From Escherichia coli (GTDB lineage: Bacteria > Pseudomonadota > Gammaproteobacteria > Enterobacterales > Enterobacteriaceae): a stretch of DNA of 53,280 nucleotides. The notes beneath the pieces were generated by a model. That model searched no databases and had not been told where the DNA came from. It worked only from the letters and a program-made list of their open reading frames with translations. Position numbers and translations under genes: made by a program. Below, piece by piece: positions 393 to 20,454 of this stretch. The stretch lies in NCBI RefSeq assembly GCF_003334815.1, contig NZ_QOWO01000028.1; one strand, given 5' to 3'. Each line of letters starts with the position of its first letter. Position 1 is the first letter of the stretch.

Positions 393-424
393 TAAAAAAA
401 TCCCCGCCAAATGGCAGGGATCTT
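393..424 (-). terminator. Intrinsic terminator downstream of cspA
   Basis: Minus-strand GC-rich hairpin (ATCCCTGCC...GGCGGGGAT) followed by a run of T, directly 3' of the cspA stop. Confidence 0.6.
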
Positions 425-448
425 AGATTCTGTGCTTTTAAGCAGAGA

Positions 449-661
449 TTACAGGCTGGTTACGTTACCAGCTGCCGGGCCTTTAGCGCCGCTTTCGATG
501 GTGAAGGACACTTTCTGACCTTCGTCCAGAGATTTGTAACCATCGTTCTGGATAGCAGAGAAGTGTACGAACACATCTTTAGAGCCATCGTCAGGAGTGA
601 TGAAGCCGAAGCCTTTGTCAGCGTTGAACCATTTTACGATACCAGTCATTTTACCGGACAT
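449..661 (-). CDS. cspA: Major cold shock protein CspA (70 aa)
   Basis: Translation [70 protein letters not shown] contains the RNP1/RNP2 cold-shock-domain motifs (KGFGFI, VFVHF). Confidence 0.97.
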
Positions 662-820
662 AGTGTATTACCTTTAATAATTAAGTGTGCCTTTCGGCGA
701 TATGGCGTGCTTTACAGATTTTGAAGCGTTAAAGGAATGTGCACTACGAGGGGTATCAACGATAACTCTTGAAGGGACTTGCCTTACTACACTGCTTTAA
801 TGGTCTGTACGTCAAACCGT
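662..820 (-). promoter_or_regulatory. cspA long 5' UTR (cold-responsive leader, about 159 nt)
   Basis: Established knowledge that cspA mRNA has a roughly 159-nt leader acting as an RNA thermosensor; coordinates are inferred from the ATG position, with an AT-rich promoter/UP region beyond it. TSS not determined from sequence. Confidence 0.5.
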
Positions 821-941
821 TGATGTGCATTAAGCCACGCATTGGCGGGTGATGCAACAATTATTTTTCATATTTATGATTAATCGGTTGGAAAACGGTC
901 CTGTCATCAGGACCGTAAACAGCAATAAAGTGGATAAAAGT

Positions 942-7769: not shown

Positions 7770-8474
7770 GTGTTAATGATCATAAAAAAAAGCGGTGGTC
7801 GCTGGCAGCTAAGCCTGCTGGCGAGCGTGGTAATCAGTGCCTTTTTTCTCAACACAGCTTACGCCTGGCAACAAGAATATATCGTTGATACGCAACCCGG
7901 ACTTTCCACAGAGCGTTACACCTGGGATAGTGATCATCAACCTGATTACAACGATATTTTGTCGCAACGTATTCAAAGTAGCCAAAGGGCGCTGGGACTG
8001 GAAGTCAATCTGGCGGAAGAAACCCCTGTGGATGTGACCAGCAGTATGAGTATGGGCTGGAATTTTCCTTTATATGAACAGGTTACAACCGGCCCGGTCG
8101 CGGCATTACATTACGATGGCACAACCACCTCGATGTATAACGAGTTTGGCGACAGTACTACCACGCTGACCGATCCGTTATGGCATGCCAGCGTGAGTAC
8201 CTTAGGCTGGCGTGTTGACTCCCGGCTTGGCGATCTCCGACCCTGGGCGCAAATCAGCTATAACCAGCAATTTGGCGAGAATATCTGGAAGGCGCAATCA
8301 GGCCTGAGCCGGATGACGGCGACAAACCAGAACGGCAACTGGCTGGATGTCACCGTAGGCGCTGATATGTTGCTCAATCAAAATATTGCCGCCTATGCCG
8401 CGCTAACTCAGGCAGAAAATACCACTAATAATAGCGACTATCTGTATACGATGGGGGTTAGCGCCAGATTTTAA
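7770..8474 (+). CDS. yhjY: YhjY, predicted outer-membrane beta-domain (autotransporter-like) protein
   Basis: N-terminal signal peptide and a C-terminal aromatic residue (terminal F) typical of OM beta-barrels; position between tag and yhjX. Confidence 0.8.
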   Translation: MLMIIKKSGGRWQLSLLASVVISAFFLNTAYAWQQEYIVDTQPGLSTERYTWDSDHQPDYNDILSQRIQSSQRALGLEVNLAEETPVDVTSSMSMGWNFPLYEQVTTGPVAALHYDGTTTSMYNEFGDSTTTLTDPLWHASVSTLGWRVDSRLGDLRPWAQISYNQQFGENIWKAQSGLSRMTATNQNGNWLDVTVGADMLLNQNIAAYAALTQAENTTNNSDYLYTMGVSARF

Positions 8475-8588
8475 CGTAACAGTCACAATTGAAACCATTA
8501 AATAACAATAGTTGTGGCGATAGTGGGTGCTAACTTACCAAATAATAAATTTGGTGAATAATTGTCGCGTCATTCATTCCTGAACTAA

Positions 8589-8619
8589 GGCATTTCATTC
8601 CGTTCTGATGGCATTTCAT
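8589..8619 (+). promoter_or_regulatory. Direct repeat GGCATTTCAT-N11-GGCATTTCAT (YpdB response-regulator binding site of the yhjX promoter)
   Basis: Two perfect 10-bp direct repeats at 8589-8598 and 8610-8619 with an 11-bp spacer, about 85 bp upstream of the yhjX ATG. Matches my recollection of the published YpdB motif. Confidence 0.5.
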
Positions 8620-8702
8620 GCCGTTTTTCCCCAGGCATAAAGTGCACTTCGTTATGGTTGTCGGCAGAGATTTTTCCTTTTTATTACTGCAGGAATACTG
8701 CC

Positions 8703-9911
8703 ATGACACCTTCAAATTATCAGCGTACCCGCTGGCTGACACTCATCGGTACTATCATTACCCAGTTTGCGCTGGGGTCGGTTTATACCTGGAGCCTGTT
8801 TAATGGCGCGCTTTCCGCCAAGCTGGATGCGCCGGTAAGCCAGGTCGCTTTCTCTTTCGGCTTGTTAAGTCTGGGGCTGGCAATTTCGTCTTCTGTTGCG
8901 GGCAAATTACAGGAACGTTTTGGCGTTAAACGCGTCACCATGGCTTCCGGCATTTTGCTGGGATTAGGCTTCTTCCTGACAGCGCATTCTGACAACCTGA
9001 TGATGCTGTGGTTAAGCGCCGGTGTGCTGGTGGGACTGGCAGATGGCGCGGGTTATCTGCTGACGCTCTCTAACTGTGTGAAGTGGTTCCCGGAGCGTAA
9101 AGGTCTGATCTCCGCGTTCGCTATCGGTTCTTATGGTCTGGGTAGCCTGGGTTTCAAATTTATCGACACGCAGCTGCTGGAAACGGTCGGTCTGGAAAAA
9201 ACCTTTGTGATTTGGGGAGCGATTGCGCTGTTGATGATTGTTTTCGGCGCAACGTTAATGAAAGACGCACCAAAACAGGAAGTGAAAACCAGCAATGGTG
9301 TGGTGGAGAAAGATTACACGCTGGCAGAGTCGATGCGTAAACCGCAGTACTGGATGTTAGCGGTAATGTTCCTGACCGCCTGCATGAGCGGCCTGTACGT
9401 GATTGGGGTAGCGAAAGATATCGCCCAAAGTCTGGCACACCTTGATGTGGTTTCCGCAGCCAATGCAGTCACTGTTATTTCCATCGCCAACCTTTCAGGT
9501 CGTCTGGTGCTGGGTATTCTGTCTGACAAAATCGCCCGTATCCGTGTTATTACCATTGGTCAGGTGATATCGCTGGTGGGTATGGCGGCCCTGCTGTTTG
9601 CACCATTGAATGCAGTGACGTTCTTTGCAGCGATTGCCTGCGTGGCATTTAACTTTGGCGGCACTATTACCGTCTTTCCGTCACTGGTCAGTGAGTTCTT
9701 TGGCCTCAATAACCTGGCGAAAAACTACGGTGTGATTTATCTCGGTTTCGGTATCGGTAGCATTTGTGGTTCGATTATCGCCTCACTGTTTGGCGGCTTC
9801 TATGTGACCTTCTACGTGATTTTCGCCCTGCTGATTCTGTCATTGGCGCTTTCTACGACGATTCGTCAGCCAGAGCAGAAAATGTTGCGTGAGGCGCATG
9901 GCTCCCTTTAA
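8703..9911 (+). CDS. yhjX: MFS transporter YhjX (402 aa)
   Basis: Multi-pass membrane protein of the oxalate/formate antiporter-like MFS type; start trimmed to MTPSNYQRTRW. Confidence 0.9.
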   Translation: MTPSNYQRTRWLTLIGTIITQFALGSVYTWSLFNGALSAKLDAPVSQVAFSFGLLSLGLAISSSVAGKLQERFGVKRVTMASGILLGLGFFLTAHSDNLMMLWLSAGVLVGLADGAGYLLTLSNCVKWFPERKGLISAFAIGSYGLGSLGFKFIDTQLLETVGLEKTFVIWGAIALLMIVFGATLMKDAPKQEVKTSNGVVEKDYTLAESMRKPQYWMLAVMFLTACMSGLYVIGVAKDIAQSLAHLDVVSAANAVTVISIANLSGRLVLGILSDKIARIRVITIGQVISLVGMAALLFAPLNAVTFFAAIACVAFNFGGTITVFPSLVSEFFGLNNLAKNYGVIYLGFGIGSICGSIIASLFGGFYVTFYVIFALLILSLALSTTIRQPEQKMLREAHGSL

Positions 9912-12017: not shown

Positions 12018-12094
<77 letters not shown>

Positions 12095-12184: not shown

Positions 12185-12270
12185 GTAGGCCTGATAAGAC
12201 GCGTCAGCGTCGCATCAGGCAAATGTGCCGGCCATTGTCGGATGCGGCGCGACCGCCTTATTCGACCTAC
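12185..12270. repeat. REP/BIME palindromic units
   Basis: GTAGGCCTGATAAGACGCGTCAGCGTCGCATCAGGC and a second degenerate GCCGGATGCGGCG...CCTAC unit, typical of E. coli REP elements. Confidence 0.55.
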
Positions 12271-14480: not shown

Positions 14481-14580
14481 TGCCTGATGCGCTCCGCTTA
14501 TCAGGCCTACGAAAATTCTGCAATGTATTGAATTTGCACGATTTTGTAGGCCGGATAAGGCGTTAACGCCGCATCCGGCA
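14481..14580. repeat. REP/BIME cluster in the dppA-dppB intergenic region
   Basis: TGCCTGATGCGCTCCGCTTATCAGGCCTAC and GTAGGCCGGATAAGGCGTTAACGCCGCATCCGGCA in inverted orientation. Confidence 0.7.
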
Positions 14581-20337: not shown

Positions 20338-20405
20338 GAGAGAAAACCCCCGCACGTTGCAGGTATGCACCTGACAACACCACGGGGGCTAATCTTGACT
20401 CTAGA
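20338..20405 (-). ncRNA. rdlD: Antisense sRNA RdlD (antitoxin of the ldrD type I toxin-antitoxin pair); coordinates approximate
   Basis: Established ldr/rdl arrangement places an roughly 60-nt antisense RNA upstream of and opposite to ldr. The minus strand here carries a CCCCCG...CGGGGG hairpin followed by a T-tract ending near 20338. Confidence 0.4.
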
Positions 20406-20454
20406 CCACTCAAGAATAGCCGCGAAACGTTGTCATTACAACACAGGCGGCTAT

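Follow-up and report, generated by a model that had tools for sequence, protein, structure and literature searches.

The window, by which we mean the whole 53,280-bp stretch of Escherichia coli DNA analysed here, carries the yhjX gene and, upstream of it, the 228-bp yhjY-yhjX intergenic region (8475-8702). This region houses a pair of direct repeats, sites A and B (Table 1), which start 114 bp and 93 bp, respectively, upstream of the yhjX ATG at 8703. YhjX scored above the cut-offs of the NCBIfam models TIGR00890 (478.5 bits) and NF049980 (342 bits), and the latter, 'L-lactate MFS transporter', is the source of its RefSeq name. The intergenic region had no match in Rfam and a consensus scan found no terminator after yhjY, while the Rfam matches elsewhere in the window are to ordinary K-12 features.

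Over a compared span of 2,701 bp, E. coli K-12 MG1655 is identical to the window but runs the other way, the repeats falling at 3,712,121-3,712,112 and 3,712,100-3,712,091 of NC_000913.3. The yhjX promoter region was found in 5423/5426 complete E. coli genomes, and the ypdB/pyrR sequence, whose gene lies outside the window (K-12 pyrS-pyrR, 2,498,671-2,501,117), was likewise found in 5423/5426. Some E. coli strains (e.g. CP131_Sichuan) have an IS1 insertion in yhjY, within its 3′ part and shortly before the intergenic region; in these strains the repeat-containing stretch matched by our query (window 8300-9000) is 100% identical.

Table 1. Positions of the elements upstream of yhjX and of other annotated features in the window.
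Feature	Position	Strand	Remarks
cspA thermoregulator	394-821	-	Rfam
GATAG-N6-CT(A/C)AC element, GATAGTGGGTGCTAAC	8519-8534	+	Conserved; present in 65/81 loci
Published YpdB-binding fragment	8566-8623	+	58-bp exact string match to PMC4847170, Table 1
Distal copy, CGTCATTCATTCC	8568-8580	+	Degenerate; in phase with site A, which lies 21 bp downstream; consensus nG(T/C)CATTCATTCC
YpdB/PyrR site A, promoter-distal GGCATTTCAT	8589-8598	+	Conserved unit extends to 8601: GGCATTTCATTCC; block replaced in the 'A bs' mutant oligonucleotide
11-bp spacer, TCCGTTCTGAT	8599-8609	+	First 3 nt (TCC) part of the conserved 13-bp unit; other 8 nt variable
YpdB/PyrR site B, promoter-proximal GGCATTTCAT	8610-8619	+	Conserved unit runs to 8622 (GGCATTTCATGCC); mutated as a block in the 'B bs' oligonucleotide
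Inverted motif-like element, TGCACTTTATGCC	8634-8646	-	11 bp downstream of the 13-mer of site B; between predicted -35 and -10
Predicted -10 of the YpdB-dependent yhjX promoter, TATGGT	8653-8658	+	Predicted from conservation
Shine-Dalgarno AGGA	8691-8694	+	Within conserved block GCAGGA; 8 nt before ATG
yhjX CDS	8703-9911	+	MFS transporter, oxalate/formate antiporter family; regulated target; ORF frame and RefSeq annotation
tRNA (annotated tRNA-Pro in a related strain)	12018-12091	+	Rfam
naRNA4	12188-12267	-	Rfam
ES036 sRNA	14503-14545	-	Rfam
rdlD antitoxin RNA	20341-20406	-	Rfam

The repeat pair and the YpdB operator of yhjX

Around the repeats the window reads ...CTAAGGCATTTCATTCCGTTCTGATGGCATTTCATGCCG..., and both direct reading and a pattern search place exact copies of GGCATTTCAT on the + strand at sites A and B. 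No other exact copy was found on either strand of the window. The starts of the two copies are 21 bp apart, which leaves the 11-bp spacer that a preliminary description of this DNA had given for two identical 10-mers, and the identity between the repeats reaches 15/16 positions (GGCATTTCAT(T/G)CCGTT). We relied on the direct pattern search for the 10-mer pair because a repeat search with seed 6 missed it, reporting a pair out of register (8570-8583 and 8595-8608) in its place.

We put the probability that these repeats are the published YpdB (PyrR) operator of E. coli yhjX at about 97%. The motif named for YpdB is GGCATTTCAT (Behr et al. 2016, PMC4847170), and the 58-nt core of the published yhjX-promoter binding oligonucleotide (PMC4847170, Table 1) matches 8566-8623 exactly, the fragment being said to match all DNase I-protected nucleotides (PMC4847170). 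Thus, the window holds a direct GGCATTTCAT repeat with an 11-bp spacer, within a sequence identical to a fragment bound by YpdB in vitro, placed directly upstream of yhjX in an organism in which ypdB is present. Moreover, the 10-nt repeats and 11-nt spacer agree with the definition of LytTR architecture as two repeats of 9-11 nt, direct or inverted, set 11-13 nt apart (PMC4847170). The preliminary description had taken the pair for the YpdB recognition site upstream of yhjX and had proposed a comparison with the published footprint; given the agreement of the motif, the identity of the oligonucleotide and the published binding data, that identification was correct and the feature is known. Because the site is already known from footprinting, mutagenesis and measurements of binding kinetics, recovery of the repeats in itself brings nothing new.

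YpdB is a LytTR-type response regulator that is activated by the histidine kinase YpdA on extracellular pyruvate, and yhjX is its sole direct target reported (PMC4847170); the YpdA/YpdB system has since been renamed PyrS/PyrR. Expression of yhjX rises 678-fold on 3 mM pyruvate (PMC7660256). From the published mutant oligonucleotides we assigned site A to the upstream copy and site B to the downstream copy. Site A is bound with high affinity (~1.2 nM) and slow on and off rates, site B with lower affinity (~21 nM) and fast on and off rates and only after A is occupied, an order of binding for which the authors coined the name 'AB-BA' model (PMC4847170). An activated YpdB monomer takes site A first and enables a second monomer to bind at site B, whereupon yhjX transcription is induced (PMC4847170). 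A comparative paper from 2017 states that YpdB motifs are conserved in the yhjX promoters of other genera; no motif sequences were found in its supplements. Our literature search for footprint descriptions of the yhjX promoter found none. The primary paper on the YpdB site in this promoter is that of Fried, Behr and Jung from 2013, and the footprint limits and mutational data are second-hand here.

Conservation of the array and predicted geometry of the promoter

A scan of species-representative genomes with YhjX yielded 80 distinct yhjX upstream regions from ~22 enterobacterial genera, including Escherichia, Citrobacter, Enterobacter, Klebsiella, Kluyvera, Buttiauxella, Kosakonia, Lelliottia and Cedecea. 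Both repeat units were present at the exact 21-bp register in 80/80. Mean column conservation was 0.96 for A and 0.92 for B, compared with 0.52-0.63 for the spacers and 0.40 further upstream; the A-B spacer has a conservation of 0.63 and its length is fixed in 80/80. The conserved unit is 13 bp long, (G/T)GCATTTCAT(T/G)CC, and in the site A 13-mer positions 2-4, 6-10, 12 and 13 are invariant or near-invariant across the 80 species. The first G of the published 10-mer is not conserved, being G or T across genera. Indeed, site A starts with T (TGCATTTCAT) in E. coli AVS0533 and SBF22, a natural variant, so that even among E. coli strains the two 10-mers are not always a 'perfect' match. Of 5396 matching E. 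coli genomes, 3600 were 100% identical over the 58-bp span, with 1723 in the 95-99% band and 73 in the 90-95% band. In an alignment of three divergent E. coli strains, the differences inside the 58-bp span were confined to flanks or spacers, the initial base of A and the third position of the distal copy.

Just after site B, GCC-N-TTTT (8620-8627, + strand) is almost invariant across genera. Its T-tract (8624-8627) falls outside the 10-mer motif as published and may aid bending or polymerase contact. One locus in the comparison, on CACSKA010000004.1, is labelled 'Chryseobacterium sp. 18061' and carries an enterobacterial yhjX locus near-identical to the one in Citrobacter sp. 18056; mislabelling or contamination of the assembly is the probable reason.

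The preliminary description held that a third related copy seemed absent. On the contrary, a degenerate copy lies at 8568-8580, matching the site A 13-mer at 9/13 positions, and it keeps a 21-bp register with A in 80/80. Its mean conservation is 0.91 and its invariant positions in the 80 species are G at 2, TTCAT at 6-10 and C at 12. The distal copy is probably a weak member, with an auxiliary role, of the array that A and B form.

Two further elements flank the array. The inverted element downstream of site B ranks fourth among the matrix hits of the entire window, with a score of 12.4, and in E. coli it is degenerate, having T in place of the invariant C of TTCAT. Across species this position scores >=8 in 25/80 and is near-perfect in 9/80 (e.g. 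CGCATTTCATGCC), at a fixed distance of 10-11 bp from B; in Enterobacter, Lelliottia and Klebsiella, within the 80 species, the inverted copy is absent at the aligned position. It may represent an additional YpdB site specific to some lineages, or what is left of one. Upstream of the array, the GATAG-N6-CTAAC element is unique within the window. In most genera it is preceded at fixed distances by tTAACAT and tACAAT blocks, while its distance to the repeat array varies. No consensus RNA structure was found for this far-upstream module on either strand, nor any Rfam match. The element gave no convincing fit to sigma-54, CRP, PdhR, Fur, ArcA or BtsR-like motifs.

Between the array and yhjX, conservation points to TATGGT as the -10 hexamer. 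All hexamer variants listed at this position keep the initial TA and the final T (78/80 species; 2 show a 5-nt aligned block), and in 80/80 the predicted -10 is 42-43 bp away from where B starts. The end of site B lies 33 bp from the predicted -10, and the -35 region, CCCAGG at about 8630-8635, is poor. From this geometry we infer a yhjX start site near 8664-8666; a start near 8666 would centre B at about -51, A at about -72 and the distal unit at about -93, on one helix face. The consensus promoter scan did not report the TATGGT promoter. No mapped yhjX start site was found in the literature searched, the start-site supplements of Kim 2012 being without yhjX. The scan did offer TTACCA-N16-AATAAT (8535-8562), which is not conserved and which we rejected as the YpdB-dependent promoter since it is placed in the least conserved stretch (0.40). 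An alternative -10, CATAAA/TAAAGT (8636-8643), was also set aside, being lost in many genera whereas TATGGT-type hexamers are universal.

Alternative readings of the repeats

Could the repeats be a functionless chance duplication in an AT-rich intergenic region? When the 228-bp yhjY-yhjX intergenic region was resampled 20,000 times with a first-order Markov model, 1.2% of the resamples (a fraction of ~0.012) contained an exact 10-mer pair whose starts were 10-40 apart, and throughout the window pairs of this kind number 8 overlapping hits versus ~2.3 expected. Comparable pairs are thus not rare across the window and the repeat alone is of modest significance. The decisive evidence that the repeats are real is their cross-species conservation, both copies being held in fixed register across ~22 genera; this, together with the direct published binding data (PMC4847170), refutes chance duplication, to which we give practically no credence. 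Scarcely more credible is the proposal that the repeats mainly serve another regulator, such as BtsR (YehT), the LytTR paralogue, through direct action on the yhjX promoter. The proposal draws on signalling from BtsS to YpdB in a uropathogenic strain, yet the cross-talk so described still runs through YpdB. Moreover, the sequence of the BtsR site within the yjiY fragment (ACCGCTTA ... ACCACTCA) bears no relation to the YpdB motif, and it was this fragment that was used as the control not bound by YpdB (PMC4847170).

A more serious question is whether the perfect 10-mers are only the core of a larger operator, namely a phased array of three direct 13-bp units (starting at 8568, 8589 and 8610), joined in some lineages by an inverted fourth unit before the -10, in which the distal unit is a real YpdB contact needed for full activation. 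We put the odds slightly against this larger operator. In its favour, the distal copy is conserved like A and B with its register exact in 80/80, it falls inside the footprint-derived oligonucleotide (8566-8623) said to cover the DNase I-protected nucleotides, and flanking nucleotides are reported to influence expression in vivo (PMC4847170); the near-perfect inverted copies, fixed relative to B, would fit as well. However, the distal copy scores a mere 0.8 on a matrix built from A and B (rank 42), and the inverted copy has decayed in E. coli, while many genera lack it. The wild-type fragment gave two binding events only (PMC4847170). Mutation of A abolished all binding although the mutant oligonucleotide kept both the distal copy and B, and mutation of B left a single binding event, at A (PMC4847170). 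YpdB occupancy of the distal copy in vitro therefore stays putative. The binding assay was nevertheless not an ideal test of this copy, because the distal copy adjoined the biotin-anchored end.

Returning to the published YpdB operator, the 21-bp period amounts to two helical turns and would set A and B on one face of the DNA. The sites would act on an activator-dependent sigma-70 promoter that combines the conserved -10 TATGGT with a poor -35, B ending 33 bp before the -10. The functional unit would be 13 bp, nGCATTTCAT(T/G)CC, and the third, weaker in-phase unit (8568-8580), which alone cannot bind YpdB, probably helps occupancy or DNA bending. A bolder version would have the three-unit phased array (8568-8580, 8589-8601, 8610-8622) extend across the sampled Enterobacteriaceae with the distal unit a real cooperative YpdB contact, the inverted element (8634-8646) a built-in brake that adds to pulsed yhjX expression and, separately, GATAG-N6-CTAAC (8519-8534) the site of a second regulator. 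We offer this combination tentatively and think it rather more likely to be wrong than right.

Comparison with known systems

The site ties extracellular pyruvate sensing by YpdA/YpdB to expression of the YhjX transporter, and it is a model for the sequential loading of LytTR regulators on tandem repeats. To this our comparison contributes modestly, with a 13-bp unit, an invariant register over ~22 genera and a third conserved in-phase unit. Possibly novel are the third in-phase unit with its conservation, the inverted unit that varies among lineages and the element far upstream, and a third unit conserved like both known sites could refine the published two-site binding model.

The K-12 yhjX YpdB site (PMC4847170) is the same object as that described here: the 58 bp, the gene context, the GGCATTTCAT pair and the 11-bp spacer are identical. 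What goes beyond the published K-12 site, from the comparison made here, is the 13-bp unit, the variable first G, the third in-phase unit and the inverted unit in some genera. A close counterpart is the BtsR (YehT) site in the btsT (yjiY) promoter of E. coli, which belongs to a paralogous LytS/LytTR pyruvate-sensing system and likewise consists of direct repeats with a 21-bp start-to-start period. As counted here in the published fragment (PMC4847170, Table 1), the BtsR site is ACCGCTTA-N13-ACCACTCA, such that it differs from the YpdB site in its 8-bp unit, its 13-bp spacer and its unrelated motif. Its target also differs, BtsT being a CstA-family protein and another transporter than YhjX. By our count the published yjiY (btsT) oligonucleotide holds a further degenerate copy, GCCGCTCA, ~20 bp upstream of ACCGCTTA. 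The likeness to the distal copy of the yhjX promoter is a hint that the two paralogous pyruvate-sensing systems may have three-unit arrays in common.

More broadly, the YpdB site shares with generic LytTR operators two repeats of 9-11 nt, 11-13 nt apart, and the importance of flanking DNA (as summarised in PMC4847170); those operators lie upstream of an activator-dependent promoter, such as is predicted here for yhjX. The operators of AgrA at P2/P3 in Staphylococcus aureus, VirR in Clostridium perfringens and the Pln system in Lactobacillus plantarum, which are likened to it on the strength of the summary in that paper and of general knowledge, differ from the YpdB site in that there is no common consensus and in that their regulators, signals and targets are other ones.
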